Assembly (NCBI GenBank): GCA_963666735.1
Contig: OY762926.1
Location: 992,001 to 1,056,000 of the forward strand
DNA length: 64,000 bases
Reading direction: 5' to 3'
Source: Gemmatimonadota bacterium
GTDB lineage: Bacteria > Gemmatimonadota > Gemmatimonadetes > Palauibacterales > Palauibacteraceae
This document shows positions 26,575 to 43,771 of this stretch, piece by piece. Position 1 is the stretch's first letter, and each line of letters opens with the position of its first letter. Made by a program: the position numbers and the translations under genes. The notes under the pieces were generated by a model. It had not been told where the DNA came from and searched no databases. It saw only the letters and a list, made by a program, of their open reading frames with translations.

Positions 26575-28268
26575 CCCTTGCGGTGCCTCTCCCACGGACT
26601 GCGCGTGAAGTAGGACTCCGTCATCTCCCTGATCCGAGGCGCGAGGAAGATCAGCGCGATCAGGTTCGGAATGATGACGATGGCCAGGAAGATGTCCCCG
26701 AGCGACCACACCACGGCGAGCGGAAGCACCGCGCCGACGAAGTGCATCGCGACGAACACGAGCTTGTACGGGATGATCGCGTTCGGCCCGAACAGGTAGT
26801 TCGCGCAGCGGTCGCCGTAGTAGCTCCATGAGATCGCCGTCGAGATCGCGAACAGGAAGACGGAGAAGATCACGATGTAGTGGCCCCAGTCGCCGAGCGG
26901 CGCCAGACCGCGCTGGAAGCCCATCTGCGTCAGGGGCGCGCCCGTCTCGTAGGCCTGTCCGTAGAGGACGGCCAATTCCCGCCCGTCGTCGGCGATCGCG
27001 ACGGTCCGCGCCGGATCGACGGCCCCGCTGAACGGCTGCGTCTGCGCCTCATCCTCGAACAGTTGCGGCACGGAGACCTCGTGCCACGCGAGGTGCGGCT
27101 CGCTCGTCACGCCCGGCCGTCCGAGCGTGTAGCGGATCGTCCCCGCGGGCTCCGTGGGCACCGAGCTTCCGCCCTCGTCGAGCACCACGTAGCTGATGTC
27201 CCCGCCCTCGAGTTGGATCGCGGTCGGGATCTGCGAGTTCCAGGCGCCGGTCATGATGATGACGAGCGCGGTCATCGTGACGATGACGATCGTGTCGATG
27301 AACGGCTCGAGCAGCGCGACCACGCCCTCTGAGACCGGTTCGTCGGTCTTGGCGGCCGCGTGCGCGATCGGCGCGGAGCCCTGCCCCGCCTCGTTCGAGA
27401 AGAGCCCGCGCCGCACCCCCCACATGAGGGTGACGAGGAAGGCGCCGACGCCGGTGCCCGCCACGCCGGCGGTCGGGTTGAAGGCTTCGCGGAAGATGAG
27501 CGCGAAGGTCTCCGGCACCTGACCGAGGTTGAGGATGATGATGATCATGGCGGCGGTCACGTAGACGATCGCCATGAACGGGGCGAGGATGCTGGTGACG
27601 CGGCCGATGCGCTTGATCCCGCCCAGAATCACGAGCGCCACGATCGTCGAAGTGACGAGGCCGGTGACCCACGTCGCGATCCCGAACTCGGCCCGCATCG
27701 CGTCCGCCACCGTGTTGGCCTGGTTGGCGTTCCCCGTCATGAACGCCGTGAGACCCAGCATCACCGCGAAGAACGCCGCCACCGGCTTCCAGCGCGGGCC
27801 CAGCCCCTTCTCGATGTAGTACATCGGCCCGCCCGACACCGTCCCGCTGTACTTCGCCGACGACTCGTCGACCTCGCGGTATTTCTGCGCCAGCGTGACC
27901 TCGCTGTACTTCGTCGCCATGCCGAGGAAGGCGGTCATCCACATCCAGAACAGCGCCCCCGGCCCGCCGAGGTGGATGGCGATCGCCGCGCCGGCGATGT
28001 TTCCGATGCCCACCGTGGCGCTGAGCGCGGTGGTGAGCGCCTGGAAGTGCGACACGTCGCCCGGATCGTTCGGGTCGTCGTATCGGCCCGTGGCCACCGC
28101 GACCCCGTGCGCGAACTTGCGGATCTGCGGCAGGCCCAGCCTGAGGGTGAGGTAGGTCCCGATGCCGAGGAGAAGCAGGACCTGAAGCGTCAGGCGCTCT
28201 CCTCCGATCGTGATCCCGAACTGCGCGACGTTGCGGTCGAGCCAGTCTACGATTGTGGCGAAGTCCAT
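26571..28268 (-). CDS. Sodium:alanine/glycine symporter (AGCS family)
   Basis: ALSATVGIGNIAG, GGPGALFWMW, GGPMYYI, RGLFSNEAGQGSAPIAHAAA, EPFIDT, WSYYG, PNLIAL. Confidence 0.93.
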   Translation of the reverse strand: MDFATIVDWLDRNVAQFGITIGGERLTLQVLLLLGIGTYLTLRLGLPQIRKFAHGVAVATGRYDDPNDPGDVSHFQALTTALSATVGIGNIAGAAIAIHLGGPGALFWMWMTAFLGMATKYSEVTLAQKYREVDESSAKYSGTVSGGPMYYIEKGLGPRWKPVAAFFAVMLGLTAFMTGNANQANTVADAMRAEFGIATWVTGLVTSTIVALVILGGIKRIGRVTSILAPFMAIVYVTAAMIIIILNLGQVPETFALIFREAFNPTAGVAGTGVGAFLVTLMWGVRRGLFSNEAGQGSAPIAHAAAKTDEPVSEGVVALLEPFIDTIVIVTMTALVIIMTGAWNSQIPTAIQLEGGDISYVVLDEGGSSVPTEPAGTIRYTLGRPGVTSEPHLAWHEVSVPQLFEDEAQTQPFSGAVDPARTVAIADDGRELAVLYGQAYETGAPLTQMGFQRGLAPLGDWGHYIVIFSVFLFAISTAISWSYYGDRCANYLFGPNAIIPYKLVFVAMHFVGAVLPLAVVWSLGDIFLAIVIIPNLIALIFLAPRIREMTESYFTRSPWERHRKG

Positions 28269-28522: not shown

Positions 28523-30697
28523 GTGGGTCCGAAGAACAAGATTCCCGGGCGCCTCCGGCGGCTGTGGGCACTCGCCAACGACCTGTCGTGGACCTGGAAC
28601 CGGGAGGCCCCGGCCCTCTTCCGGGCCATCGATCCGCCGCTATGGCGCCGCACGCGGCACAACCCCGTGGCGCTGCTGCGAACCGTCGGCGACGAGCGCC
28701 TTCACGGCCTGGCCGAAGATCCCGGCTTCCTCGGGAGATACGACGCGGCGCTGGAGGTCTGGCGTGACGCGGGGGCCGGCGGCGACAGCCGGGCCGGCGC
28801 CACCCCGACCTGGTTCGGCAAACGCTACCCCGCGCTCCGCAACACCCCGGTGGCGTACTTCTGCGCGGAATTCGCCCTGCACGAATCCATCCCCATCTAC
28901 TCCGGGGGACTCGGCGTGCTCGCGGGGGACCATCTCAAGGCGGCCTCGGAACTCGGGATCCCCCTCGTCGGTGTCGGACTGATGTACGCGCACGGCTACT
29001 TCGACCAGACGCTGGGACCGGACGGCTGGCAGGAAGATGCGGACGACCCGCTCGATCCCGACCTGACGCCGCTGGAGCGGTTGCACGGCATGGATGGCGT
29101 CCCCTGGCTCGCCTCGATCCGCGGCGGAGGGCACCGCATTCGGATCGGGGCCTGGAGGCTGCGCGTCGGGCGCGTCTCGCTGTATCTCCTCGACACGGAT
29201 CTCGATGAGAACGACCCCGCGGACCGGGGCCTCTCCCACCAACTCTACGCGGGCGGCGCGGATCACCGGCTGCGACAGGAAGCGATCCTCGGCGTCGGAG
29301 GCGTGCGCGTGCTCGACGCGCTCGGGGTCGAACCCGGGGCATGGCATGCGAACGAGGGCCACGCGGCGTTCATGATGGTCGAGCGCGTCCGCCGATCGAT
29401 GCGCGACGGCCGGTCGTTCGCCGATGCGGCGTCCCGGGTCCGCGCCTCGACCGTTTTCACCACCCATACGCCCGTCTCCGCGGGTCACGATGTGTTCTCC
29501 CACGCACAGATGCGGGAATGGATCGGCGAGACGTTGTGGGAAGAGATCCCTCACCGCGAGGAGTTGCTCGCACTCGGGCTCCACCCGGACGACGAGATGC
29601 AGGACAGGTTTCACATGACGGCGGCGGCGATCCGCCTGTCGCGGCGAGTCAATGGCGTTTCCGCGCGGCACGGGCGGGTGAGCCGGGAAATCTGGTGCGG
29701 CCTCTGGGAAGGCCGGGCAGCCGGAGAGGTGCCGATCCGGCATGTCACGAACGGGGTCCACCTCGCCACGTGGATGAGCGACGACATCGCCGGCCTCCTG
29801 GACGAATGGCTGCCGGCCGGGTGGCGGCGCGTCCCTGGCGACGAAACCACGTGGCGCGCGGTCCGCGACGTTCCCGTGGAGGCGCTGTGGCGCGTGCGAC
29901 GCCGGCTGAAGCTCCGGCTGCTCGATCTGATGCGCGACGAGGCCCGGCGCCGGTGGCCGGACCATTGGCCGGAATCGGCCCACCTCGCCGGCGCCGGCAC
30001 GCTCATGAGCCCGGGGCCGCTCACGATCGGGTTCGCGCGGCGGTTCGCCACCTACAAGCGGGCGGATCTCATCTTCCGCGACCCCGACCGTCTCCAGGCG
30101 CTGCTTTCGGACCCCGCCCGCCCCGTGCAGCTGATTTTCGCCGGGAAGGCGCACCCGCGGGACGGCGACGGCAAGCGCGTCCTCCAACGCGTGTACGAGC
30201 GCGCGCGCGATCCCGGGTTCGAGGGGAGGATCGCCCTCATCGAGAACTACGGACTCCATACGGCACATGGTCTCGTCGAGGGCGTCGACCTGTGGCTCAA
30301 CCTTCCCCGGATCCCGCTGGAAGCGAGCGGGACGAGCGGGATGAAGGCGGCGCTCAACGGCGTCCCCCAACTCGCGACCGCGGACGGCTGGTGGGAGGAG
30401 GGTTTCGAGGGAGACAACGGGTGGATCATCCCCCCCGCGCCGGCCGGGGCGAGCGAGGAGGTGGTGGACGAGCACGACGCCGAACACCTGTTCCGGCTCC
30501 TGGAGGAAGAGGTCATCCCCCTCTACTACGATCGGACCGGCGCGGATGGCGCGGATGGCGTCCCGTCGGGCTGGCTCGCACATGCGCGGCGCGCGGTCGA
30601 GGTGGCCGGCGCGCGATTCACGGCCGGTCGCATGGTGCGGGACTACGCGCGGGACTACTACGTGCCGGCGCTGCGAGATTCCCGCGGAGACGACTGA
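28523..30697 (+). CDS. glgP: Alpha-glucan (glycogen) phosphorylase
   Basis: YSGGLGVLAGDHLK, HANEGH, FTTHTP, FARRFATYKR, AGKAHP, PLP site EASGTSGMKAALNG. Confidence 0.95.
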   Translation: MGPKNKIPGRLRRLWALANDLSWTWNREAPALFRAIDPPLWRRTRHNPVALLRTVGDERLHGLAEDPGFLGRYDAALEVWRDAGAGGDSRAGATPTWFGKRYPALRNTPVAYFCAEFALHESIPIYSGGLGVLAGDHLKAASELGIPLVGVGLMYAHGYFDQTLGPDGWQEDADDPLDPDLTPLERLHGMDGVPWLASIRGGGHRIRIGAWRLRVGRVSLYLLDTDLDENDPADRGLSHQLYAGGADHRLRQEAILGVGGVRVLDALGVEPGAWHANEGHAAFMMVERVRRSMRDGRSFADAASRVRASTVFTTHTPVSAGHDVFSHAQMREWIGETLWEEIPHREELLALGLHPDDEMQDRFHMTAAAIRLSRRVNGVSARHGRVSREIWCGLWEGRAAGEVPIRHVTNGVHLATWMSDDIAGLLDEWLPAGWRRVPGDETTWRAVRDVPVEALWRVRRRLKLRLLDLMRDEARRRWPDHWPESAHLAGAGTLMSPGPLTIGFARRFATYKRADLIFRDPDRLQALLSDPARPVQLIFAGKAHPRDGDGKRVLQRVYERARDPGFEGRIALIENYGLHTAHGLVEGVDLWLNLPRIPLEASGTSGMKAALNGVPQLATADGWWEEGFEGDNGWIIPPAPAGASEEVVDEHDAEHLFRLLEEEVIPLYYDRTGADGADGVPSGWLAHARRAVEVAGARFTAGRMVRDYARDYYVPALRDSRGDD

Positions 30698-30724: not shown

Positions 30725-31477
30725 CTATGTGGCGGGAAGCAACTCGTCGAGGTAGCGGAGCAGCATGTGGCGCCATGTGGGCCAGTCGTGATGCCACTCC
30801 TCGCCCCAGTCGTCCATCCGGTTCGGTACGCCTTTCCGCCCGAGGAGCGAGGCCGCGCGCCAGGATTCGCCGATGTCCTCCGCCCGCCCGCGCCCGGAGG
30901 CGAGGAGGACGAAGCGTTCCCGCAGACGGTCGAGCGTCTCGCCCGCGAGTTGCGGCAGATGGTGCACGGGCGAGGCGCGGTAGAAGTCTCCGGTCGCGCT
31001 CGCTTCGGTCCCCGTCTCGTGTTTCAGGAAGCGCTGGAGGTCGTACGTGCCGCTCATGCACAACGCGTGTGAGAACGCGTCGGGAAACCGGCACAGCATG
31101 GCCAGCGCGTTGAATGCCCCGATCGACGAGCCCGCGACGATGACCTCGATCCCCGGGTCGTTGCAGTCTTCCCGGATCACGGGCACGAACTCGCGGTAGA
31201 CGAACTCCTGGAACCGGTTGAGGACCGTCATGCGGTGTTCGGGGGTCCCCTCCCGTCCGAGCATGACGCGGCCCGCGACGCTGTCGCACGAATAGACCTT
31301 GATCCGTCCGTCCGTCAGGTAGTCCGCGACCGCGTCGATGACGAGGAAGCGCTCGATCTCCTCCGCATCCCCTCCTGCGGTGGGAAACATGAGGAAGGGA
31401 AGGCCGGCCTCGCCCCAGCGGGCGACGTTGACCTCCTGGCCGAGGCGGTCGGACCGCCAGCTTCGGTTGATCTTCAT
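30725..31477 (-). CDS. Esterase (alpha/beta hydrolase, Esterase/antigen-85-like family)
   Basis: FPTAGG, GSSIG nucleophile elbow, MSGTYD, HHDWPTW; ATGA overlap with the upstream gene. Confidence 0.8.
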   Translation of the reverse strand: MKINRSWRSDRLGQEVNVARWGEAGLPFLMFPTAGGDAEEIERFLVIDAVADYLTDGRIKVYSCDSVAGRVMLGREGTPEHRMTVLNRFQEFVYREFVPVIREDCNDPGIEVIVAGSSIGAFNALAMLCRFPDAFSHALCMSGTYDLQRFLKHETGTEASATGDFYRASPVHHLPQLAGETLDRLRERFVLLASGRGRAEDIGESWRAASLLGRKGVPNRMDDWGEEWHHDWPTWRHMLLRYLDELLPAT

Positions 31478-32769
31478 GAGGCGAGAATCGGCACGGCGCC
31501 GGGAGGTTCCTCGCGGCGGGCCGCCTGTATGCGGTCGAAGAAGAGCGCGGTGAACTCTTCGACTTCGTGATCGGGGTAGAGCGATGCCACCTTCGCGTGC
31601 ACCGCGTCGCGGGCGGCTTCGCTGCCGAAGAACTCGTGCGCCACCTCGTCGAGTTCCGCGAGATGAGTGTCGCAGAACTCCACGAAGCGGGCGGTCTCGA
31701 ACCGGGCCTCCGCGATCGCGGCACACGCCCGAACCTTCTCTCCCACCGACATCCCGGGGCGGCAGGCATCGAAGAACGGCTGCCAGTCGAGGTTGATGCG
31801 CATCTTGCGCCGCGTCGCCGCGCAGAAGAGAGACCAGCGGAGGTTCGCCTTGATGAGCCACGGAAAATGGTAGTGGAGCGACGTGACCTGCGAGTCCGGA
31901 CAGGGGTTGGCGAAGTCGATCGGCACCCACTGCCTGCCGTTGCGCAGCACCTCGCACGAGTTGAAATCCCAACCGAAGAAGGCGTTGATCGTGAGCGTCG
32001 TGTCCCGGATCGCGCCGGTGTCCGCGGGCTCGAGGTGATCGCGCTCGGCGGTGTAGCGGTCGTGCGCGGGGGCCTCGGGGTCGTAGAGGACGGCGCGCGT
32101 CTGGGGCCCCAGCCCGATGCAGCGGACGAAGCGGTCGTGCGCCACCCCCTGCTGAAGGTGCATGACGAACTTGCCGCTCTCGTCGTAGGCGGCGCCGAGC
32201 GCCTCGTCGTCCCCGATGCGCGACACGCCGCGCCAGCCACCGCCGTCGTAGGGTTTCATGAACACGGGATAGCCCAGGTCGTGCGCCACGGCGGGAAGAT
32301 CGAACAGCCGCGCGTAGCGCTTCAGGGTGACCGCCAGATCGTCCTGCGGGTCGTAGGACTTGGGCGGGATGAGCCATGTCCGCGGAACCGGGAGACCCAG
32401 CCTCATCATCGCGCAGTAGGTGGAGTGCTTCTCCATCGACTGGACGCTCCACGGATTGTTGAACACGTAGAGCCCGTCCATGATCACGGACTTCTTGATC
32501 CATTCTCGCGTCGGAAAATACCAGTGCGTGAGGCGGTCGATGACAACGTCGTATTTTCCCTTCTGCTGCAGATCGAAGGGCTCGATCGTGACATCCTCGA
32601 GATGGAACCGGATCATGCCGCCGGACGACGGGATCCGGGGGTTCAGCCGCTCGAGGATCGCGCGGTAGGCGATGGGCCAGCAGAGGTCCGCCCCGAGCGA
32701 GAGGCCGATGCGGCGCGTGACCTCGGGCGCCGGGGCCGGTGGGGGCGCGGAGGCCGCGGGGACGGTCAT
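31474..32769 (-). CDS. ATP-grasp amide ligase (RimK/GshB-like)
   Basis: VIDRLTHW, NNPW...EKH, YPVFMKPYDGGGWRGVSRI, FNSCE, IDFANPCPD. Confidence 0.8.
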   Translation of the reverse strand: MTVPAASAPPPAPAPEVTRRIGLSLGADLCWPIAYRAILERLNPRIPSSGGMIRFHLEDVTIEPFDLQQKGKYDVVIDRLTHWYFPTREWIKKSVIMDGLYVFNNPWSVQSMEKHSTYCAMMRLGLPVPRTWLIPPKSYDPQDDLAVTLKRYARLFDLPAVAHDLGYPVFMKPYDGGGWRGVSRIGDDEALGAAYDESGKFVMHLQQGVAHDRFVRCIGLGPQTRAVLYDPEAPAHDRYTAERDHLEPADTGAIRDTTLTINAFFGWDFNSCEVLRNGRQWVPIDFANPCPDSQVTSLHYHFPWLIKANLRWSLFCAATRRKMRINLDWQPFFDACRPGMSVGEKVRACAAIAEARFETARFVEFCDTHLAELDEVAHEFFGSEAARDAVHAKVASLYPDHEVEEFTALFFDRIQAARREEPPGAVPILAS

Positions 32770-33962
32770 TCGTACACCATCCAGAGGGGACCCGGGAAGA
32801 GCCACGACAGGCCCTCGCGCAGCCGGTCGCGCCAGTTCTCCCAGTTGTGGCCATCGCGCGACTCGACGAAGCGCACGTTGGCGCCGCCGCGCCGGAGGGC
32901 GGGGATCAGGGCTCGATTCTCCGAGACGAGCGGTTCATAGACGCCCACGGAGACGAAGACCTTCTGCGCGACGGCGGTCGGCGCGTCCCGGTACGCGTTC
33001 ATCATCTCGACGATGCGGTCGAAGACGGGGCCGCTCTCGCTGGCGCCGATGTCCGTGAACAGGAACGAGCCGGACTGCAGCAGGAGGCGGCCGAAGCGGC
33101 CCGGGTGTTCGAGCGCGGCGTGGAAGGAGGCGACCGCACCGAGACTCGCGCCCATGAGACCGCGCGACTCCGGCTCCGGGAGGAGCGGGTAGTCGCGCTC
33201 GAGGCGCGGCAACAGTTCCTCGACGACGAACCGCGCGTGCGCCGGATCCGCCGAATACTCCGACATGCGGTCGCCGGGATGCAGCAACGCGACGATCATC
33301 CGCGGGATCTCGAAGCGGCCCATCAACTGGTCGAACACCGCGCGCAGGCTGGCGTACTCGAGGTAGTCCGCGCCGTCGTGGACGACGAGCAGCGGGTAGC
33401 TGCGGTTCGCACGGAACGCCGCCGGACGGTACACCGTGACGTGCCGGGCGGAATCGAGCGCCTCGCTTTCGACCACGAGTTCGTCGATCGCGCCGCGGTG
33501 GGCCTCCTCGCTCTCACGAGCCCAGCCGGGGATTTCGTAGCCGCGTGCCTGCACGACGGAGTTCGCGCCGAACGGATCGCGGGCGCGGTGGGGGTTCAGC
33601 GGATCCTCGATCCACTCCGCGCGGCCGTGGGCGAGCACCTCGATCTTGTACTCCACCCGCGACTCATCGGGGAGTTCGAGGGTGTAGCACCAGAGATCCG
33701 TTCCGTCCAGGCGGCGGAAGGGCGCCGAGGTCTGGAGTCCGTGCACCCAGTGCCGTAGGCGGACGGCGTCCGCGGGACCCCGATACACGAAGGTGTAGAG
33801 GGGCGGCTCGGAGAGCGGGAACTCGTTGGCATCGAGGAACGCGTCCACCGCGGCCGCCGCACCGGGACCCGGGACGAGCTGCTTCTCGAGCGCCGCGATG
33901 GCCGGCGAACGCGGCATGGACAGGTCGTGCCCCTGTTCGCGGAGGTTGGCGTCGAATCGCAT
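32766..33962 (-). CDS. Fes-like esterase with N-terminal Ig/CBM48-like domain
   Basis: N-terminal TFVYRG...LWCYTLEL...EYKI...DPLNP; VYRP, VHDGADY, GASLG, QSGSF, GHNWENWR. Start may be 33917. Confidence 0.8.
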   Translation of the reverse strand: MRFDANLREQGHDLSMPRSPAIAALEKQLVPGPGAAAAVDAFLDANEFPLSEPPLYTFVYRGPADAVRLRHWVHGLQTSAPFRRLDGTDLWCYTLELPDESRVEYKIEVLAHGRAEWIEDPLNPHRARDPFGANSVVQARGYEIPGWARESEEAHRGAIDELVVESEALDSARHVTVYRPAAFRANRSYPLLVVHDGADYLEYASLRAVFDQLMGRFEIPRMIVALLHPGDRMSEYSADPAHARFVVEELLPRLERDYPLLPEPESRGLMGASLGAVASFHAALEHPGRFGRLLLQSGSFLFTDIGASESGPVFDRIVEMMNAYRDAPTAVAQKVFVSVGVYEPLVSENRALIPALRRGGANVRFVESRDGHNWENWRDRLREGLSWLFPGPLWMVYE

Positions 33963-33969
33963 GGCCGGA

Positions 33970-34941
33970 CTACGCTGCCGCGCGGAAAGGGACCCGGCGG
34001 CCCGCCAGGTCGAGACGCTCGACGCCGTCCCCGCCGCTCCAGCCGTCGCCGGCCCGGTCGAGGCGGCGGCCCGGGTCGAGGAGGACGCAGGATGCCGGGG
34101 CGAAGCGGGCCGCGAGCCGCGCGCTGCGCGCCCGGTCGTCCAGCGCCAGGCGGGCCGAGGCGTGGGGAAGCGCGACGATCCCCGCGGCGAGCCCGAATCC
34201 CGCATCGAACACCTCGGAGTTCCCCTCCCCCCAGGGCGGCCGGTCGTGAAAGAGGACGATGCGCTCCGTCAGCACCATCGCGCCGGCCGAGCGGGCGATC
34301 ACGGTGCGGCTTCCGAGGAGATCCCGTCCGCCGAAGAGACGCAGCCGGCTGAGGAGATTCGAGACGTGCCCGCCCTCGAGGAGGATCGCCTCCGCCCCCT
34401 CGAGACGCGCGTTTACCTCCCGTCGCTGCGATCGCACGGCGTCGCGCTCGCCGGGCGCCATGCGCCGTTCGAACGCCGAGCGAATCTCGACCACGCGGTC
34501 GAGATGGCGCGCATCGAGGCGCCGAATCGCTTCGAGGGCCTCATCCCGTTCCTCGGCGAGCACCGTCTCGTCGCCTCGCAGGTCGGCCAGCCGCCGATGG
34601 GCCTCGATGAGACCGTGGAGCCGCAGGTTGTAGGCGCGCCGCAGCGCCCGGAGCCGGTCGCGGCTCGCCCGGTGCGCCCGCGCGAGCTCCGCGTCCGCTT
34701 CGGCGATCCGGTCGGAGCGCCGATAGAGCTCAAGGTCCACGACGCGGTCGGCGAGGCGGGGATCGACCAGGCCTTCGTTCGCCTCGCGGTCCCGCCACCC
34801 CGCGGTGACGGCCGCGATCCGCGCGCCCGGCGACAGCGCGCCCTCGGCCTCCAGTTCCCGGACCACGTCCCGGAGCGTGAGGCCGCCTCCTCGCGGACCC
34901 AGGAGGACGAGCGGCGACCGCGACCCGGCGCCGTCGGCCAT
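33970..34941 (-). CDS. Peptidase S51 / class I glutamine amidotransferase-like hydrolase (peptidase E/cyanophycinase-like)
   Basis: VTAGW, LEGGHV, ARSAGAM (xSAGA nucleophile), LPHA. Confidence 0.65.
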   Translation of the reverse strand: MADGAGSRSPLVLLGPRGGGLTLRDVVRELEAEGALSPGARIAAVTAGWRDREANEGLVDPRLADRVVDLELYRRSDRIAEADAELARAHRASRDRLRALRRAYNLRLHGLIEAHRRLADLRGDETVLAEERDEALEAIRRLDARHLDRVVEIRSAFERRMAPGERDAVRSQRREVNARLEGAEAILLEGGHVSNLLSRLRLFGGRDLLGSRTVIARSAGAMVLTERIVLFHDRPPWGEGNSEVFDAGFGLAAGIVALPHASARLALDDRARSARLAARFAPASCVLLDPGRRLDRAGDGWSGGDGVERLDLAGRRVPFRAAA

Positions 34942-34961
34942 CCGACGCCTTCTCGACGCCC

Positions 34962-36185
34962 TCATGCGGCGCGCACCCGCACCCACCGCCCCACGGCGTC
35001 GAGCATCGCGCGGAGTTCGTCGTAATCCGGGTGCCGCAGGCGGAGCCAGGCGTTCGCCATGTATCCGGCCTCCACCGGTTGGGTGGGCGTACCGGGCGGC
35101 GGCAGGTGCGTGTCGATGATCCACTCTCCGAAACGGGCTTCCACCTTCTCCAGACCCTCGTACCCCGCGATCCGTCCATCGTTTTCGGGCCGCAACGTCA
35201 CGATCCCCGCCGAGTACCGGCGCGACGCGTCCTGCGATTTGCGGCCGTGCACGAGGCAGGCCGCCCACTCGCGGTACACGTCCATTTCGTTCGCCGCTCC
35301 ATACAGGTCCCAGGCCCGTACGCCGGGGGGACGACAACCGATCTCGGAGAACTTGAGCCCTTTGTCGCCGAAGAACCATTCCATGTGGGTCGCCGAGGTC
35401 CCGATCTCGAGCGCATCGATGACCCGCCGCCCCAGTTCCCTGACTTCGGCGTATGCATCGGCGGTGTCGATCCGGTTCGTGGCGATGAACTGGGGCGACA
35501 CGTCACGGGTCCGCATGGCCTCGAGCACGTTCGGGTAGTAGTGGGTCATGAAGTCGTGGACCACCGCGCCGCCCACCGTCAGCGTGTCGTAGAAGGCCTC
35601 GTGTCCGTCGACGAACTCCTCGACGGCCACTTCGGCTCCCTGCCCCACGCCGAGGCGCGGGAGCAACGCCGCGAGCCGGGCCTCATCGTCGACGCGATAC
35701 GTGCCCGAGGCGCCGGCCCCGGCGCGAGGCTTGACGATGAGCGGATAGCCGACCCGTCCGCCGAAACGCACGATCTCCTCCGCGTCGCCTCCACCCATGG
35801 ACTGCGCCGTCGCGATCCCCGCACCGCGAAGGGCGTCCTTCATGGCCGGCTTGTCGCGGCACAGGTGCGCGGTGCGCACGGAGGTCCCGGCCAGCCCCGC
35901 GGCTTCCCGCACGCGGGCGGCCGGGAGGATGTGGGCTTCGACCGTGGCCTCGAGGCGATCCACGGGCCGCCGCCGGTGGATCTCGTGAAGCGCGTGTGCG
36001 AGCGCGCCCTCGTCGCACACGGAACCGACCTGCTCGTAGCAGGTGAGCCACCGGTGCAGGTCGGCGCCCAGCGCTTCCGGCGGGGCTTCGCCCACCGCGG
36101 ACACTTCCGCGCCGATCTCGTGCAGGCCGCGCACGAAGGCTTTCTGGTTCCCGGGGAACAGGGGTTCAACGAATACGACGTGCAT
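34962..36185 (-). CDS. ATP-grasp domain protein (L-amino acid ligase-like), paralog 1
   Basis: RDKPAMK, GYPLIVKPRAGAGA, EEFVDG, THMEWF, SEIGCRPPG. Confidence 0.85.
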   Translation of the reverse strand: MHVVFVEPLFPGNQKAFVRGLHEIGAEVSAVGEAPPEALGADLHRWLTCYEQVGSVCDEGALAHALHEIHRRRPVDRLEATVEAHILPAARVREAAGLAGTSVRTAHLCRDKPAMKDALRGAGIATAQSMGGGDAEEIVRFGGRVGYPLIVKPRAGAGASGTYRVDDEARLAALLPRLGVGQGAEVAVEEFVDGHEAFYDTLTVGGAVVHDFMTHYYPNVLEAMRTRDVSPQFIATNRIDTADAYAEVRELGRRVIDALEIGTSATHMEWFFGDKGLKFSEIGCRPPGVRAWDLYGAANEMDVYREWAACLVHGRKSQDASRRYSAGIVTLRPENDGRIAGYEGLEKVEARFGEWIIDTHLPPPGTPTQPVEAGYMANAWLRLRHPDYDELRAMLDAVGRWVRVRAA

Positions 36186-36308
36186 GCTTCGCCAACGACT
36201 CGCGGGGAAAACTTCACTTTGGGGGCTCGACATAGTACAGTCCCTGCTCTCGAACGCCAGCCCGTCCGGCGGCGGCCGTCCGGCCCGCCGCGGCAACCCG
36301 GAAGATCC

Positions 36309-37532
36309 ATGCCCAACGTCGCATTCGTCGCCCCGTTCTATCTTCCCACCACGCTGCGCTTTCTGGAAGCCGCCGCGGGGCGCGCCGACGTGCGCCTCGG
36401 GGTCGTGACGCAGGAGCCGCTCGAGCGAACGCCGGCCTCGCTGCGGCGGGGGGTCGCGGCGCACGTCCAGGTCGAGGACGCCCTGTCGGCGGAGGGGATT
36501 CACAGCGGGCTGCGCCGGCTCTCCGCGGAACTCGGCGGGATCGACCGCCTGCTGGGCGCGCTCGAGGAACTTCAGGTGCCGCTCGGGGAGCTGCGCGACG
36601 CGCTGGGAATCGCGGGCATGGGCGCGGCCGCCGCGGACAACTTCCGCGACAAGTCGCGCATGAAGGACGTGCTCCGGGCGCACGGTCTGCCCTGTGCCCG
36701 ACACGCGCTGGTCCGCGGCGAGGGCGAGGCGACCGCCTTCTCGGATACTGCCGGCTTCCCGCTCATCGTGAAGCCGCCGGCCGGTTCCGGAGCCCGCGGC
36801 ACGTTCCGCGTCGAAACGCCGGCGCAGTTGCGCACGGCGATCGCGATGTCCCGGCCGAGCGCGGAGCGGCCGACGCTCATCGAGGAGTTCATCGTCGGCG
36901 AGGAACACTCCTTCGACGGGGTCTCGGTCGGCGGGCACGTCGTCTGGCATTCGATCAACCACTACCTGCCCTCGCCGCTCGAGGTGCTGCGCGAGCCGTG
37001 GATCCAGTGGTGCGTCCTCCTTCCGCGGGAGGTCGATTCGCCCCGGTACGAGGAGATCCGGCGCGTCGCGGGACCCGCGCTCGATGCGCTCGGGATGGAG
37101 ACGGGGCTGAGCCACATGGAGTGGTTCCGGCGGCCCGACGGTTCGGTGGCGATCTCCGAAGTCGGAGCCCGGCCGCCGGGCGCCCAGTTCGTCACGCTGA
37201 TCTCCCAGGCCCACGACTTCGACCTCTACCTTGCCTGGGCCCACCTCCTGGTCTTCGATGAATTCGATCCCCCGCCCCGCCCCTACGCGGCCGGCGCGGC
37301 CTATCTCCGGGGACAGGGCCGGGGCCCCGTGCGGCGGGTGGCCGGCATCGAGGCGATCGCGAGGGATCTCGGGCCGCTGTGCGTCGAGTGGCGCCTCCCC
37401 CGCACGGGACAGGCGCAGAGCGCGTCGTACGAGGGAGAGGGCTACATCATCGTCCGCCACCCGCGCACCGAGGTCGTCGAGGAGGCGCTGGGGCGGATCA
37501 TCACCGAGGTAAGGGTGGAGTTGAGTACATGA
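36309..37532 (+). CDS. ATP-grasp domain protein (L-amino acid ligase-like), paralog 2
   Basis: RDKSRMK, GFPLIVKPPAGSGA, EEFIVG, SHMEWF, SEVGARPPG. Confidence 0.85.
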   Translation: MPNVAFVAPFYLPTTLRFLEAAAGRADVRLGVVTQEPLERTPASLRRGVAAHVQVEDALSAEGIHSGLRRLSAELGGIDRLLGALEELQVPLGELRDALGIAGMGAAAADNFRDKSRMKDVLRAHGLPCARHALVRGEGEATAFSDTAGFPLIVKPPAGSGARGTFRVETPAQLRTAIAMSRPSAERPTLIEEFIVGEEHSFDGVSVGGHVVWHSINHYLPSPLEVLREPWIQWCVLLPREVDSPRYEEIRRVAGPALDALGMETGLSHMEWFRRPDGSVAISEVGARPPGAQFVTLISQAHDFDLYLAWAHLLVFDEFDPPPRPYAAGAAYLRGQGRGPVRRVAGIEAIARDLGPLCVEWRLPRTGQAQSASYEGEGYIIVRHPRTEVVEEALGRIITEVRVELST

Positions 37533-38746
37533 ACGTGCTGATGATTTCGCCGGGGTACCCGGCCGAGATGACGTACTTCACGCGCGGGCTCGCGGAAGTG
37601 GGCGCGAACGTCATCGGCCTGGGCGATCAGCCCGGGTCGGCGCTGCCCGAGATCGCCCGGGCGAGCGTGTCCACCCACCTGCAGGTGAGATCGCTGGCGG
37701 ATGAGGCGGACGTGATGCGGCAGGTCGCCGCGCTCGGCGCGAGAACCCGGATCGACCGCGTGGAGTGCCTGTGGGAACCCTTCATGATCCTCGCCGCGCG
37801 GCTGCGCGAGATGCTGGAGCTGCCGGGGCCGACGGTCGAGCAGACGCTCCCCTTCCGCGACAAGGAAGTGATGAAGGACGTCCTCGACGGCGCCGGGATC
37901 CGGACGCCCCGCCACGGGAGGGCCACGAGCAGCGCGGAGTGCCGCGAGGTCGCGGAGCGCGTCGGCTTCCCGCTCATCGTGAAGCCCGTCGACGGCGCCG
38001 GCTCGGCCGACACGCACCGGGTCGATTCGGCGCGGGACCTGGAGCGGATCCTTCCCGCCCTCCGGCACGTCCCGCAGGTCACGGTCGAGGAGTTCATCGA
38101 GGGCGAGGACATGACCTTCGACACGGTCACGGTCGGAGGGGTCGTCGCGCACTACAACATCTGCCGCTACTGGCCCCGCGCGCTCGAGTCGAAGACGCAC
38201 GAGTGGCTCAGCCCCATCACCTATGCGCTGCGCGACGTGGAAGCGGATGATCTGGCCGTCGGACGCGAGATGGGGTTCGCCGTGCTCGCCGCGCTCGGAT
38301 TCGAGACCGGCTACACGCACATGGAGTGGTACCGGACGGCGGACGGGGAGGCCGTGTTCGGCGAGATCGCCGCGAGGCCCCCCGGCGTGCGGACGGTCGA
38401 TCTCATCAATTTCGCGAGCGACATCGACACCTATCGCGGGTGGGCCGAAGGGGTCGTGCACGCGAAGTGGTCGCAGCCGGTGGAACGGAAGTACAACGCC
38501 TGCTGGATCGTCAAGCGGGCGCGCGGGCAGGGCCGGATCCAGCGCATCGAAGGGCTCGCCCCGCTGCTCCAGGAGTACGGCGAGCGGGTGTGCAGCCTGG
38601 ATCTGCTCCCGGTCGGGGCACCCCGGCGGAACTGGCAGGCCACGCTCGTCTCCGACGGGATGATCTTCCTCCGCCACCCGGACATCGAGACGCTGGAGAC
38701 GATCGCCGGCGAGTTCGTGACGCGGCTGCAACTCTACGCGGCCTGA
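37529..38746 (+). CDS. ATP-grasp domain protein (L-amino acid ligase-like), paralog 3
   Basis: RDKEVMK, GFPLIVKPVDGAGS, EEFIEG, THMEWY, GEIAARPPG; ATGA overlap with paralog 2. Confidence 0.85.
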   Translation: MNVLMISPGYPAEMTYFTRGLAEVGANVIGLGDQPGSALPEIARASVSTHLQVRSLADEADVMRQVAALGARTRIDRVECLWEPFMILAARLREMLELPGPTVEQTLPFRDKEVMKDVLDGAGIRTPRHGRATSSAECREVAERVGFPLIVKPVDGAGSADTHRVDSARDLERILPALRHVPQVTVEEFIEGEDMTFDTVTVGGVVAHYNICRYWPRALESKTHEWLSPITYALRDVEADDLAVGREMGFAVLAALGFETGYTHMEWYRTADGEAVFGEIAARPPGVRTVDLINFASDIDTYRGWAEGVVHAKWSQPVERKYNACWIVKRARGQGRIQRIEGLAPLLQEYGERVCSLDLLPVGAPRRNWQATLVSDGMIFLRHPDIETLETIAGEFVTRLQLYAA

Positions 38747-40755
38747 TCCCCTTCACCCGAGCCTTCCGAGCGCGCGAGCACGAGAAACCCCAGCGGCGGG
38801 AGATCGACCGGGAGCGAGGCGGGACGTCCATGGCGGGGCGCCTCCCCGGCGCTCGGCGGCAGTGCGGTGCGCCCGCCCCCCCCGAAGGCCGGATCGCCGC
38901 TGTCCAGCAGGACGCGGTAGGGTCCGGCTTCGGGAAGTGCGACCCGGTAGTGCGGCCACGCGGTGGCGGAGAAATTCGCCACCACGACGAGACACCCCTC
39001 CCACTCCGGCCGCCAGCGCACGTAGCTCAGCACGCTGTGCCGGGCATCGTGCACGTCGAGCCACTCGAACCCTTGCGGCGCGTGGTCGAGCGCGTGTAGC
39101 GCGGGTTCTTCCGCGTACAGACGGTTCAGCGCGCGCACCCAGCGCCGGAGCCCGCGATGCGACCGGTACGCCGGGTTCGATGGCGCATCCGGAAGACTCC
39201 AGTCCAGCTCACGGTCTTCGTTCCATTCCCGCCGCTGCCCGATCTCCCCTCCCATGAAGAGGAGCTTGGCTCCCGGGTGCGTCCACATGTAGCCGAGGAG
39301 GAGGCGGACACCGGCGAACTTCTCCTCGTCCGTCCCCGGCATCTTCTCCACGAGAGAACGCTTGAGGTGAACAACTTCATCGTGCGACAGAGGAAGGAGA
39401 TGTCGTTCCGTGTGCGCGTAGTGAAGAGAGAACGTCAGGTGCCGGTGCAGACGCGGCCGCCGCTCCGGCGGGGCGGCCAGGACCCGGAGCGTGTCGTTCA
39501 TCCACCCCATGTTCCACTTGAAGTCGAACCCGAGCCCTCCCTCGTCCACCGGCGCCGTCACGCCCGGCCATGCACTGCTCTCCTCCGCGAACAGGAGGAC
39601 GCCCGGACAGTCGCGGTGGACCATCTCCGAGAGCCCTTTGAGGAAGGCGATCGCGCCGAGGTTCTCCCGTCCCCCGAGTTCGTTCGGCTCCCAGTCGCCC
39701 TCGTCCCGCGAATAGTCCAGGTGGAGCATCGACGCCACCGCATCGACGCGCAGGCCGTCCACGTGATAGCGCTCGATCCAGTAGCGGGCGCTCGAGAGGA
39801 GGAATGAGACGACCTCCGGCCGGCTGAAATCGAAGGCGAGCGTGCCCCAATCCGGATGCACGGCCCGTGATTCCTCCCCCATCTCGTAAAGGGGGGCGCC
39901 GTCGAACGTCCTCAGGCCGTGGAGGTCGGGGCCGAAGTGGCCCGGCACCCAGTCGAGCACGACGCCCAGCCCCAGGCGGTGGGCTTCATCCACGAAGTGC
40001 GCGAAGTCCTCCGGAGGCCCGTAGCGGGAAGTGGGAGCGAAGTATCCGACCGTCTGATACCCCCAACTCCCGTCATACGGGTGCTCCATGACGGGGAGGA
40101 GTTCGATGTGCGTGAAACCCAGGTCGGCGGCGTAGGGCAGCAACTCCCGGGCGAGCGCGCGGTACCCCGGCCACGAGCCGTCCGCGTTGCGGCGCCAGGA
40201 ACCGGGATGCACCTCGTAGATGGAGATGGGGACGCCGGCGGCCGCGCGTTCCCGGCGAGTCTCGACCCACGCCGCATCCGTCCAGTCGTACGGGCCGGTC
40301 GACACGACCCGCGACGCCGTGCCCGGCCTGACCTCGGCGGCGCGTCCGAGGGGATCCGCCTTGTCGACCGAGCTGGAGGGCGGGGCCACCGCGCCGTCCG
40401 TCCCGGAAGCTATCCGAAACTTGTACAGGTCTCCGGGCCCGACGCCGGGGAGAAAGCGTTCCCACACGCCGGCGTCCCCCACCGGAGACATGGGATGCGC
40501 CTCTCCGTCCCAATCGTTGAACGAGCCCACGACGCTGACCCGCCGGGCGCGCGGGGCCCATACGGCGAAGCGCGTGCCCGCCTCTCCGCCGCGCTCGCAC
40601 GGGTGCGCGCCGAGCAGATCGTGGAGCGCGGACTCCCTTCCGGCGCGGAACGCCCCGAAGTCGGACGCCTGCAGAGGGAACGAAGGGTCGCGCGCCGGGG
40701 TTTGGAGAGGTCCGGGCGGGCCGCTAGCTTTTTCGTGTTCGATCTGCCACCTCAT
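38734..40755 (-). CDS. glgB: 1,4-alpha-glucan branching enzyme (GH13)
   Basis: FAVWAP, IYEVHPGSW, SWGYQ, DWVPGHF, GLRVDAVASM, AEES, KWNMGWMND, LSHDEVVH. Confidence 0.95.
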   Translation of the reverse strand: MRWQIEHEKASGPPGPLQTPARDPSFPLQASDFGAFRAGRESALHDLLGAHPCERGGEAGTRFAVWAPRARRVSVVGSFNDWDGEAHPMSPVGDAGVWERFLPGVGPGDLYKFRIASGTDGAVAPPSSSVDKADPLGRAAEVRPGTASRVVSTGPYDWTDAAWVETRRERAAAGVPISIYEVHPGSWRRNADGSWPGYRALARELLPYAADLGFTHIELLPVMEHPYDGSWGYQTVGYFAPTSRYGPPEDFAHFVDEAHRLGLGVVLDWVPGHFGPDLHGLRTFDGAPLYEMGEESRAVHPDWGTLAFDFSRPEVVSFLLSSARYWIERYHVDGLRVDAVASMLHLDYSRDEGDWEPNELGGRENLGAIAFLKGLSEMVHRDCPGVLLFAEESSAWPGVTAPVDEGGLGFDFKWNMGWMNDTLRVLAAPPERRPRLHRHLTFSLHYAHTERHLLPLSHDEVVHLKRSLVEKMPGTDEEKFAGVRLLLGYMWTHPGAKLLFMGGEIGQRREWNEDRELDWSLPDAPSNPAYRSHRGLRRWVRALNRLYAEEPALHALDHAPQGFEWLDVHDARHSVLSYVRWRPEWEGCLVVVANFSATAWPHYRVALPEAGPYRVLLDSGDPAFGGGGRTALPPSAGEAPRHGRPASLPVDLPPLGFLVLARSEGSGEGDQAA

Positions 40756-40823: not shown

Positions 40824-42344
40824 ATGAGCCGCATGCCTGCAATCGCCAAGCCAGCGCCGACACGACCGCGGACGGGGGTCAAGCCCCCGGAGGAACTCGC
40901 CGTCGTGCATCTCGCCGCCGAGTACTGGCCGTACGCCCGCACCGGCGGCCTCGCGGAGGCGGTGCGCGGTATCGCCACTTTCCAGGCGGCCCAGGGCACC
41001 CCCGTCACGGTGTTCATGCCGCTCTACCGGTCGGTGCGTGAGGCCTTCCCGGACCTGGAGCCGATTGCGGACAGCTTCCACGTGCGCGCGGGCCGTCGGG
41101 TGGAGGAGGTCCGGATTCTCCAGCATCCCGGCCCGCGCCGGAACCCGCGGGTGCTCTTCGTCGATCATCCCGGGTGCTTCGACCGCGATGGGATCTACGG
41201 GGACGGCGGGGCGGATTACGAGGACAACCCGCTGCGCTTCGCGCTCTACAACCTCGCGGCGCTCCAGATTCTGCCGGAACTCGCCAACGTGCCCGTCGTC
41301 GTCCACGCGCACGACTGGCATGCGGCCCTCGCCCCCGTCTTCCTGCGCACGCGGTTCGCGGGACGCGAGGCGCATGACCGCATGGCGGCCGTCCTCTCCA
41401 TTCACAACGCCGGCTACCAGGGACTTCAGGGGCCCGAAACGCTCGAGGAAATCGGGCTGCCGCGCGAACTGTTTCACTGGCGCCGCATGGAGTTCTACGG
41501 CCACCTGAACCTGCTCAAGGGGGGGCTCGTGTTCGCCGACTACGCGACGACCGTGAGTCCCACGCACGCGCACGAGCTTCGCACGGCCACCGGCGGGTTC
41601 GGTCTCCACGGCTCGTTCATCGAGATGGGCGATCGCTTCCTGGGCATCCTGAACGGAGTCGATCTGGAAGTCTGGAATCCCGAGACGGACGAGGAGATCG
41701 CGGCCACGTTCTCGAGCGCGGACCTGACCGGGAAAGCCGCGTGCAAGCGGGCGCTGCAGCGGGAGTACTTCCTGGCCGAGGCGCCGCGCGAACCGCTGTA
41801 CGGGATGACCGCGCGGCTCGTCGGGCAGAAGGGGCTCGACCTGCTCATCGACGGCGGGCCCCTGGAGCGGGCCGAAGGCCAGTTCATCTTTCTCGGCCAG
41901 GGCGAGGACCGGTACGAAACGGCGCTGCGCGAGTTGGCCGGGCGGTATCCCGACCGGATCGCCGTGGATACCGAGTTCACCGAACCCAAGGAGCACCGGC
42001 TCCTGGCGGGCATCGACCTCCTCCTGATGCCGTCGCTCTACGAACCCTGCGGTCTCACGCAGATGCGGGCGCAGCTCTACGGCGTGCTTCCGGTCGCCCG
42101 CCGCGTCGGGGGGCTGGCCGACACCATCGAGGACCAGGTCACGGGCTTCCTCTTCGACGGATATACGTCGGAAGACCTCGAGATCGCGCTCGGGCGGGCC
42201 GCCGCGCTGTACGCCGGGAGCTCGGAGGCGTGGTGCGAGCATCTGGTTCAGGCGATGACCCGCGATTTCGGCTGGGCCGGGAGCGCGGCCCGCTACCTGG
42301 ACGTGTACCGGCGCGCGCTCGCCGCGCACGCTCCGGACGACTGA
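40824..42344 (+). CDS. glgA: Glycogen synthase (GT5)
   Basis: AEYWPYARTGGLA, HAHDWH, SIHNAGYQG, TTVSPTHA, GILNGVD, RLVGQKG, MPSLYEPCGLTQM, VGGLADTI. Confidence 0.93.
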   Translation: MSRMPAIAKPAPTRPRTGVKPPEELAVVHLAAEYWPYARTGGLAEAVRGIATFQAAQGTPVTVFMPLYRSVREAFPDLEPIADSFHVRAGRRVEEVRILQHPGPRRNPRVLFVDHPGCFDRDGIYGDGGADYEDNPLRFALYNLAALQILPELANVPVVVHAHDWHAALAPVFLRTRFAGREAHDRMAAVLSIHNAGYQGLQGPETLEEIGLPRELFHWRRMEFYGHLNLLKGGLVFADYATTVSPTHAHELRTATGGFGLHGSFIEMGDRFLGILNGVDLEVWNPETDEEIAATFSSADLTGKAACKRALQREYFLAEAPREPLYGMTARLVGQKGLDLLIDGGPLERAEGQFIFLGQGEDRYETALRELAGRYPDRIAVDTEFTEPKEHRLLAGIDLLLMPSLYEPCGLTQMRAQLYGVLPVARRVGGLADTIEDQVTGFLFDGYTSEDLEIALGRAAALYAGSSEAWCEHLVQAMTRDFGWAGSAARYLDVYRRALAAHAPDD

Positions 42345-42358
42345 ACCCGTCGTCGGCC

Positions 42359-43771
42359 GTGGATCGCGCCACGGTGGTCCTGCACGGTCATTTCTACCAG
42401 CCGCCGCGGGAGGACCCGTGGACGGACCGGATCCGCAGCGAGCCGAGCGCGGCCCCGTTCGGGAACTGGAACGAACGGATCACCGCGGAATGCTACGAAC
42501 CCCTGGCGCGGGCGGGGGCGTTCGAGTGGCTGAGCTTCGACCTCGGCCCGACGCTCGCGCGCTGGCTCGAGGGAGAGCGCCCGGACGTCCACGAGGGCTT
42601 CGTCCGCGGGGACCGGGCGAGCCGCGAACGGCTGGGCTACGGCAACGCGCTGGCCCAACCCTACCACCACATCATCCTCCCGCTCGCCTCCCGCCGCGAG
42701 AAGGAGACGGAGGTGCGCTGGGGGATGGCCGACTTCGAGCGGCGCTTCGGGCGGCGCGCCGACGGCATGTGGCTCCCGGAGACGGCGGTCGACACGGCCA
42801 CGCTCGAGGTGCTGGCGGCGGAGGGCGTGGCGTTCACGATCCTGGCCCCGCACCAGGTCGCGGACGTCCCGGACGGCGGGGCGGGGCGGGTCCGGCTCGG
42901 CGGGGGCCGCGAGATCGCGGTCTTCGTCTACGAGGGTGAACTCTCGCACGGCGTGGCGTTCGGGGCTCTGCTCGACGGTCGTGACGCGTGGTTCGAGGCG
43001 CTCCGTTCGGCTGCGGGCCGCGGGGCTTCCGTCGTCGCGCTGGCGGCGGATGGCGAGACGTTCGGACACCACCACCGGGGCGCCGACCGCACGCTCATGC
43101 GGGTGATCTCCCGCGCCCGCGAGAGCGGAGAAGTGGAGATCGGAAACTTCGCATCGGCGCTCGCCGGCGGCGGCGAACTGCCGTTCGTGACCCTGGAGGA
43201 GCCCACCTCCTGGAGTTGCGCGCACGGCGTGGAGCGCTGGCGCTCGGAGTGTGGGTGCCGGATGGCGCCTCACCTGGATTCGCGGCAGCATTGGCGGGCG
43301 CCGCTGCGCGAGGCGCTGGAGACGCTCGCCGCCGGCCTGGATGAGGCCTGCGCGACGCTCTCGCCCGGCCGGTTGGCGGAGCCCCGGCAGGCGCTGGCGA
43401 CGCTGGGAGGCGTCCTCGGCGACCCCTCCGGACTCGAGGACTTCGCCACCGAAGCCGCCCGCGAGGATTATGGGGACGAAGCCCGCTCCCTCCTTGAACT
43501 CGCCCGCGACCGGGCGGCGATGTTCACCTCGTGCGCATGGTTCTTCGACGATGTGGCGGGGATCGAGGCCACGCAGGTGCTCGGCTACGCGGCGCACGCC
43601 CTCGACCGCCTGCACGGGCTCGCGCCGGAGCTCGCGGAGGCGTTGGAGGCCGCCTTCGTCGCGGACCTCGCGAGGGCCCCGGCCAACGACGCCGACATTG
43701 GGAACGCGGCGGAGGTGTACGGGCGCGAGTTCAGGTCGGGTGCCGACGTCCGGGTCCCGGCGGACGCGTGA
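42359..43771 (+). CDS. GH57 family protein (DUF3536-like)
   Basis: HGHFYQPPREDPW, WNERITAECY, WLPETAVD, ADGETFGHH, SWSCAHGVERWRSECGC, MFTSCAWFFDD. Confidence 0.88.
   Translation: MDRATVVLHGHFYQPPREDPWTDRIRSEPSAAPFGNWNERITAECYEPLARAGAFEWLSFDLGPTLARWLEGERPDVHEGFVRGDRASRERLGYGNALAQPYHHIILPLASRREKETEVRWGMADFERRFGRRADGMWLPETAVDTATLEVLAAEGVAFTILAPHQVADVPDGGAGRVRLGGGREIAVFVYEGELSHGVAFGALLDGRDAWFEALRSAAGRGASVVALAADGETFGHHHRGADRTLMRVISRARESGEVEIGNFASALAGGGELPFVTLEEPTSWSCAHGVERWRSECGCRMAPHLDSRQHWRAPLREALETLAAGLDEACATLSPGRLAEPRQALATLGGVLGDPSGLEDFATEAAREDYGDEARSLLELARDRAAMFTSCAWFFDDVAGIEATQVLGYAAHALDRLHGLAPELAEALEAAFVADLARAPANDADIGNAAEVYGREFRSGADVRVPADA

Follow-up and report, generated by a model that had tools for sequence, protein, structure and literature searches.

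A widespread ligase and esterase module in the glycogen locus of a Gemmatimonadota bacterium, with a supported tie to alpha-glucan

We analysed a 64,000-nucleotide stretch of Gemmatimonadota DNA (contig OY762926.1, positions 992,001 to 1,056,000; hereafter the window), in which seven genes for ATP-grasp ligases, serine esterases and an S51-like hydrolase are embedded in a glycogen locus. This cassette represents a real, widespread and uncharacterised module that is a member of no known system. All seven open reading frames (ORFs) were intact between glgP and glgB, where a sequence-only reading of the same DNA had placed them, and the coordinates agree with its picture of two tightly packed divergent units. 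The minus-strand unit comprises, in reading order leftwards, graspB (34962..36185, 407 aa), coding for an ATP-grasp protein of the L-amino-acid-ligase fold; a gene for an S51-like hydrolase of the class I glutamine-amidotransferase fold (33970..34941, 323 aa); estB, for a Fes-like esterase (32766..33917, with an alternative start at 33962; 383 aa); graspA, for a RimK/LysX/ArgX-fold ATP-grasp ligase (31474..32769, 431 aa); and estA, for a PF00756 serine esterase (30725..31477, 250 aa). The plus-strand unit holds graspC (36309..37532, 407 aa) and graspD (37529..38746, 405 aa), two L-amino-acid-ligase-like ATP-grasp paralogues. Three of the joints are 4-bp overlaps, the remaining gaps measure 20 and 52 bp, and the two units are separated by 123 bp (36186..36308), presumed from the sequence to be a shared promoter region. 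No sigma-70-like site was found in these 123 bp, and a scan for promoters and terminators stayed at chance level (1 found versus 0.7 expected, and 3 versus 5.8).

On its left the cassette is flanked by glgP, the gene of an alpha-glucan phosphorylase (28523..30697, plus strand; TIGR02094, 736 bits, above cut-off), which converges on estA. On its right lies glgB, coding for a GH13 branching enzyme (38734..40755, minus strand; TIGR01515, 754 bits, above cut-off), which converges on graspD; graspD overlaps the stop of glgB by 13 bp, and an overlap at this end had been noted before. Because both units thus run head-on towards glgP and glgB, there is no co-transcription with these neighbours in the window. 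Beyond glgB, all on the plus strand, are glgA (GT5 glucan synthase, 40833..42344; TIGR02095, 469 bits), assigned by a tree to the resident Gemmatimonadota clade with the motif RTGGL, a gene for a GH57/DUF3536 glycoside hydrolase (42350..43771; PF03065, PF12055) and one for a GH57 alpha-amylase/4-alpha-glucanotransferase (43768..45753; PF03065, PF09094, PF09095). The GC content of the cassette is that of its surroundings. The whole 18-kb stretch was present in single contigs of two DNA-like runs from two studies, with 0 differences in one (X3 record 17, which may be the source) and 49 in the other (X7 record 25), and is therefore not a misassembly. RNA run X1 covered 13 of 30 bins and X2, with contigs of relatives, 30 of 30; coverage was flat over genes and gaps, and DNA in the library is possible.

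The nearest relatives are titled Candidatus Palauibacter, Gemmatimonadota. Locus L032 (genome G196) keeps the glgB and glgP flanks and has the seven genes between them in inverted orientation; in L031 (G100) glgP is still adjacent, and some 610 kb separate glgA and glgB from the cassette. A sodium:alanine symporter family gene beside glgP (26571-28268 of the window, minus strand) is syntenic in Gemmatimonadota relatives only. No glgC above cut-off was found in the window's own genome (G000, 94% complete) or in any of five genus mates (G058, G082, G100, G152 and G196), and no glgE in G000. The GlgA clade of the window has RTGGL in place of KTGGL in 14 of 15 rows; the window GlgA may use a sugar nucleotide other than ADP-glucose.

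The four ATP-grasp ligases had been divided beforehand into one RimK-like and three L-amino-acid-ligase-like proteins, a split borne out by AlphaFold models of graspA and graspB and by motifs in graspC and graspD. graspA has no Pfam match and scores below the curated RimK-family cut-offs (TIGR00768, 20 versus 143 bits; TIGR02144, 25 versus 276 bits), and sequence searches of the PDB returned no close solved relative of graspA or estA. Its model (pLDDT 84) was closest to RimK/ArgX (Z 18.3, root-mean-square deviation (rmsd) 3.2, 266 residues aligned), with LysX/RimK as best Foldseek match, so that graspA is predicted to have the RimK-type ATP-grasp fold, followed by a helical C-terminal extension at about residues 320-420. 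K114, K172, R216, E273, D285 and N288 are invariant. Among the fold neighbours are ATP-grasp enzymes that form esters, namely PsnB (Z 16.3) and D-Ala:D-Lac ligase (Z 14.8). No plasmid-borne graspA was detected at E 1e-15.

graspB matches RizA (4wd3, E 4.9e-16) and its model (pLDDT 90) aligned with 3vot (Z 34.9, rmsd 3.5, 381 residues) and with RizA (Z 34.6). graspC (PF02222, E 9.9e-10) and graspD (PF18130, PF02222) are 31% and 37% identical to graspB. All three keep the shared ATP, metal and Arg motifs and have distinct C-terminal signatures; the three-domain fold itself is read from the graspB model, the intact motifs from each protein. No relative of graspB was present in viral contigs (0 of 11 candidates). 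Complex prediction for a cassette GlgA with its graspB (the L105 pair, 43-row alignments) returned a score of 0.00, which speaks neither for nor against binding.

The two serine esterases picked out earlier by their GSSIG (estA) and GASLG (estB) motifs carry Ser-Glu-His triads that proved to be invariant: S118/E200/H230 in 145 of 145 rows for estA (PF00756, E 3.5e-8) and S258/E328/H357 in 127 of 127 rows for estB (PF00756, E 1.7e-23; PF11806, E 2e-5). estB, which matches Fes (2b20, E 1.6e-16), begins with an E-set domain resembling Enterochelin_N, CBM48 and CBM20. The best PDB profile match of this domain was the CBM20 of glucoamylase (E 5.5e-4), with which a Lys and the distal Trp align. Twenty longer forms of estA were collected, none with a glucan-enzyme partner from the reference set; most look like frameshifted joins, and P0034 is the only clean graspA-estA fusion.

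The remaining hydrolase had been called peptidase-E/cyanophycinase-like. An S51-like protein is indeed present, but it resembles the family only weakly (PF03575, E 5.7e-4, short of the cut-off; its own profile reaches PdxT and PepE only at E 0.07-0.6). It has a long helical insert and a non-canonical catalytic set, in which S218 is kept in 72 of 76 rows, H192 in 71, H232 in all 76 and the PepE-type His, H260, in only 50; the likely acid position holds Asp, not the Glu of cyanophycinase. The S51-like protein is fused to estB in three loci (L086, L124 and L267). A lack of signal peptides had also been reported, and on this point a hydropathy scan, the one check made, agrees (N-terminal 19-residue mean at most 1.22).

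A search with graspA gave at least 7999 matches, and we surveyed the best 80 of 562 confirmed GTDB loci together with 80 metagenome loci. By their titles, the best 80 GTDB loci span eight phyla: Gemmatimonadota, Eisenbacteria, Binatota, Myxococcota, Pseudomonadota, Planctomycetota, Actinomycetota and Acidobacteriota. Carriers made up 57 of 201 Gemmatimonadota, 22 of 151 Myxococcota and 35 of 301 Actinomycetota genomes sampled, and the complete genome of a Devosia (L130) provides a cultured carrier. Neighbours were counted in the 40 GTDB loci that extend 8 kb or more to either side, six of which are close kin of the window: estB was found in 40, estA in 37, graspB in 37, the S51-like gene in 35 and graspC or graspD in 29. 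A GCS2-CBS ligase was present in 11 of them, a glgA in 24 and a glucan gene of any kind in 27. Nine metagenome loci had such flanks, and seven of these held glgA.

Three forms of the module were distinguished. Form I, that of the window, has a long graspA. Form II, in other Gemmatimonadota and some Actinomycetota, combines a short graspA (about 30% identical), estA and an estB lacking the N-terminal domain with two further ligases, one of GCS2 type and one a circularly permuted ATP-grasp; a C26 amidase is often present as well. Form III, in most of the 20 Actinomycetota loci read, is a bare estB-estA-graspA trio without the S51-like gene. As all three share this trio, the recurring core consists of a RimK-fold ligase and two esterases, and the seven genes do not form the fixed unit that had been proposed. 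Donor-making ligases (graspB, graspC, graspD, GCS2, GCS2-CBS and the permuted ATP-grasp) and amidases (S51-like, C26, AstE/AspA and FGase) are interchangeable accessories. GCS2-CBS ligases occurred in 55 loci and GCS2 in 21, and AstE/AspA, FGase and C26 also recurred; several of these families act in glutamate or gamma-glutamyl chemistry.

Several variants were seen in the course of the survey. In Steroidobacteraceae-type loci (L068, L079, L081 and L114), polyhydroxyalkanoate genes (phaR, phasin, PhaE) and an M32 carboxypeptidase gene lie on one side and MalQ/GH57 genes on the other. A PGM1/IQCH-like ATP-grasp gene occurs as a further ligase in form I and form II loci (L126:15955-17517, L039, L227 and L280). 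The module is split in L227 and L229 (G223 and G227), with a second locus reading graspC-estA-graspD-glgA-graspB and the graspA locus lacking glgA. In another Myxococcota variant (L275, L276 and L278) the short graspA is present twice, together with estA, GCS2, a graspD-like gene and genes for an S8 peptidase and an M61 aminopeptidase. In eight actinobacterial trio loci (L258, L261, L263, L264, L266, L269, L271 and L273) the gene of an ATP-binding cassette (ABC) transporter ATPase lies about 3-4 kb upstream of graspA; these loci share other common neighbours, and the arrangement is probably synteny among kin. A conserved ORF of 368 aa without Pfam match takes the usual esterase position upstream of a short graspA in L045-L048 (e.g. 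L047:7893-8996). Far from its cassette, G000 carries a stand-alone GCS2 carboxylate-amine ligase gene (G000:C1:3803882-3804982; L050:8880-9983) near aminotransferase and amidohydrolase genes. Its product shares 65% identity with the GCS2 of form II cassettes and may be a detached partner of the module. An AstE/AspA homologue is likewise encoded far from the cassette.

The gene-neighbourhood comparison across phyla that had been suggested along with the first description of the cassette showed recurrent linkage to glg genes, not an absence of enrichment. Outside the lineage of the window, 47 form I loci hold both graspB and a divergent glgA, and in 46 of them this glgA is the gene immediately upstream of graspB. 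These cassette GlgAs make up one branch (54 of 102 rows, SH-aLRT 100 in a quick tree without bootstrap) that spans Planctomycetota, Eisenbacteria, Binatota, Pseudomonadota, Myxococcota and Gemmatimonadota. Seven rows of the branch were classed as far from a cassette: two are duplicates of cassette loci, three lie beside other cassette genes and two come from cassette-bearing genomes, with no cassette neighbours in the stretch read. In the 151 Myxococcota genomes, GlgA matches split at a gap between E 1e-148 and 1e-123. The 13 genomes above it, assigned by similarity rather than by tree and including two seed genomes, all have the long graspA, and cassette-type GlgA was found in 0 of 135 non-carriers. 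The lineage of the window lacks this dedicated clade: its GlgA belongs to a separate Gemmatimonadota branch (RTGGL versus KTGGL), and the module adjoins the resident GlgA, GlgB and GlgP genes instead. For form II, a glgA was found no more than 30 kb away in 18 of 43 genomes. The linkage thus involves at least two synthase clades.

We then compared the gene content of carriers and non-carriers, contrasts that are all inflated by kinship and genome size. GlgA was present in 48 of 50 form I genomes (drawn from the best 80 of 562 loci; one of them, G220 with locus L095, is unpublished and also enters the alignments and tree). Among Gemmatimonadota, GlgA was found in 51 of 57 carriers versus 77 of 144 non-carriers (counts that include the unpublished G157 and G057), and five of the six carriers without it were tested and all had glgE and glgB. 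In Actinomycetota, glgB was found in 35 of 35 carriers versus 117 of 266 non-carriers; these include seven unpublished carriers and two unpublished non-carriers, and when unpublished genomes and the seed were left out the figures were 27 of 27 versus 115 of 264. G152 (94% complete), the sole genus mate of the window without graspA, also lacks glgA and glgB. These data support a functional tie of the module to alpha-glucan.

We hypothesized that the module attaches an amino acid or short peptide, probably containing glutamate, reversibly to alpha-glucan through an ester with a glucose hydroxyl, a reading to which we give somewhat less than an even chance. The glucan so modified would be either bulk glycogen or an oligoglucan that the dedicated GlgA synthesises. 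Accessory ligases (graspB, graspC and graspD, elsewhere GCS2-type and circularly permuted ATP-grasp enzymes) would make a small peptide donor, and graspA would convert a carboxylate into an acyl-phosphate, leading to peptide extension or ester formation. One serine esterase could act as acyltransferase, and estB, with its E-set domain, could remove the group. Amide bonds might be recycled by the S51-like protein, elsewhere by AstE/AspA, FGase or C26 amidases. We infer both the order in which the ligases act and the transferase role of an esterase. The module may serve to store nitrogen along with the glucan, or to control the charge and turnover of granules. An ester of an amino acid or peptide with a glucose hydroxyl would be the simplest chemistry to require amide ligases, two esterases and alpha-glucan capacity together. 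Two invariant esterase triads beside a ligase also disfavour a purely peptide product, which would call for peptidases rather than esterases. The oligopeptide or polyamide associated with alpha-glucan that the sequence-only reading had envisaged is therefore upheld as to its functional tie, by the dedicated GlgA clade and the glucan pathway of the carriers, while the chemistry of the product is what we infer.

A bolder proposal, which we consider possible with appreciable doubt, is that many bacteria make a covalent peptidyl-glucan, in which the alpha-glucan of a dedicated synthase and ester-linked, glutamate-rich peptides form a joint storage polymer for carbon and nitrogen. ATP-grasp ligases and an esterase-fold transferase would assemble the peptides, and dedicated esterases and amidases would dismantle the polymer. 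Bacterial glycogen is regarded as a plain glucose polymer, and the accepted reserve compounds are few. If the proposal holds, peptidyl-glucan would be the first case of bacterial glycogen modified with amino acids by dedicated enzymes. A module with a private synthase, and with almost no carrier lacking a glucan pathway, points to a hitherto unrecognised glycogen decoration or coupled nitrogen reserve, and enzymes able to aminoacylate starch-like glucans at the expense of ATP would also be useful.

Apart from the inflated contrasts, a number of observations weigh against ester decoration of a glucan. L-amino-acid ligases normally require an amine acceptor, which a glucan lacks. The linkage to glg genes, recurrent in several phyla, is rare in Actinomycetota (within about 20 kb in only 4 of 20 loci read) and was absent from the three alphaproteobacterial loci read (L077, L100 and L130). 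Three plasmids, two of them rhizobial and one clostridial, bear distant ligase-plus-estA pairs with no glycogen gene nearby. Of the 16 Myxococcota carriers of form I, three are without the dedicated GlgA, and one of these three has a different glgA at a distance of 7 kb; a GH13 glgB was not found in 5 of 45 carriers searched; and in G100 glgA and glgB are remote from the cassette. As to the N-terminal domain of estB, cluster scores put it closer to Enterochelin_N (0.97) than to CBM48 (0.92), the first canonical Trp is out of register in an alignment to carbohydrate-binding-module motifs, and the short-graspA variant has no such domain. Starch was not bound by the CBM48 domains of CE1 esterases (PMC8040265).

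The loci without linked glg genes fit easily with a companion nitrogen reserve, which would work like cyanophycin and not be bound to the glucan, the tie to glycogen being shared regulation or a shared granule. Accessory ligases would then make an isopeptide or dipeptide unit, graspA would polymerise it as CphA2 does with beta-Asp-Arg, the S51-like protein would depolymerise it and an AstE/AspA-type enzyme would split the unit. This logic parallels that of CphA, CphB and CphZ (PMC9974463). AstE/AspA, FGase and the CBS-bearing GCS2 ligase recur in the loci, and phaR and phasin flank the module in Steroidobacteraceae as in a general storage cluster. Such a reserve would, however, leave without explanation both the two conserved core esterases and the private GlgA clade that never occurs without the module; moreover, the actinobacterial trio does without the S51-like gene, whose product has lost the His in 26 of 76 rows. 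We consider it rather unlikely.

Regulatory protein modification is improbable. Here the RimK-like graspA would tag GlgA, GlgB, GlgP or a cassette protein with glutamates or a peptide, and the hydrolases would untag it. The closest folds of graspA (RimK, LysX and ArgX) act on proteins or carrier proteins, and a cognate GlgA clade co-evolving with the module would suit a target or partner. However, no single synthase could be the target, the carriers having a cassette GlgA, a resident GlgA, or GlgE without GlgA; esterases do not normally remove amide tags; and the cassette gaps of 20-123 bp are too small for the gene of a LysW-like carrier. Even less probable is a small soluble metabolite, such as a gamma-glutamyl peptide or a peptide ester of maltose, trehalose or glucose, serving as compatible solute or stress protectant fed by glycogen breakdown: the short-graspA variant does hold a glutathione-like pair (GCS2 and circularly permuted ATP-grasp) and a C26 amidase, and the plasmid ligase-esterase pairs are free of glg genes, but the gene recruited to the module is that of a polymerising synthase and not of a degrading enzyme. 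Chance insertion of an unrelated cassette into a glycogen locus, to which the units converging on glg transcripts instead of joining them, the inversion in G196 and the 610-kb separation in G100 would lend themselves, is very improbable and largely refuted by a linkage that extends over several phyla and two or more GlgA clades, the 13 of 13 exclusivity in Myxococcota and the Actinomycetota glgB counts.

No description of the module, and no characterised pathway of such composition, was found in the literature searched, as the sequence-only reading had held; a 2009 amidoligase neighbourhood survey by Iyer and colleagues may contain a partial mention, and operons that pair related esterase and ATP-grasp genes may occur in Bacteroidota and Bacillota, the one case observed being on a clostridial plasmid. 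The nearest known systems share parts with it. graspA has the core fold of RimK, LysX, ArgX and the graspetide synthetases (Z 16-18) but is only 12-17% identical to them, adds the helical extension of 100 residues and shows D-x-x-N at the site where E-x-N is usual. A graspetide or other cluster for ribosomally synthesised and post-translationally modified peptides was rejected in view of the cassette gaps of 20-123 bp and the lack of a recurrent precursor or exporter among ORF clusters of at least 90 aa, the size range clustered. graspB has the whole three-domain fold of the L-amino-acid ligases RizA, BL00235 and BacD (Z 34.9, 34.6 and 29.6 over the three), with 18-22% identity in structural alignments; the cassette differs in having three ancient paralogues with distinct C-terminal signatures and no antibiotic-cluster or exporter context.

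With Fes and the CBM48-CE1 carbohydrate esterases estB shares the two-domain layout and the Ser-Glu-His triad. It scores under the Fes cut-off (NF007758, 117 versus 222 bits) and no siderophore or xylan-utilisation genes recur in module loci; a siderophore esterase locus is excluded by this score and the lack of recurrent siderophore genes. Cyanophycin metabolism (CphA1/CphA2, the S51 enzyme CphB and the AstE/AspA-fold CphZ) is alike in pairing cytoplasmic ATP-grasp amide ligation with an S51-fold hydrolase (PMC9974463), to which the cassette offers an S51-like counterpart, and its AstE/AspA enzyme is shared with many module-related loci. The cassette, in contrast, has four separate ligases of two folds, all single-module proteins of 405-431 aa, unlike CphA1 with its ATP-grasp and Mur-ligase domains in one chain, together with two esterases, a divergent and dispensable S51-like protein and a tie to a glucan synthase. 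Cyanophycin proper is ruled out by the lack of CphA in G000, where the best TIGR02068 match reached 68 bits against a cut-off of 850. Mycobacteria make methylglucose lipopolysaccharide (MGLP), an alpha-1,4-glucan that is acylated and stays inside the cell, by means of a private glucosyltransferase, Rv3032, and the acyltransferase OctT, which is annotated as esterase (PMC4555173). No 6-O-methyltransferase, glucosylglycerate primer enzyme or acyl-CoA transferase of this type was seen among the recurrent neighbour families annotated, a comparison confined to the loci and not extended genome-wide. Its synthesis draws on acyl-CoA as donor and on a methyltransferase and a transferase of the SGNH fold, where the module has ATP-grasp activating enzymes and a GT5 synthase; MGLP nevertheless provides a precedent for a private glucan synthase coupled to acylation.

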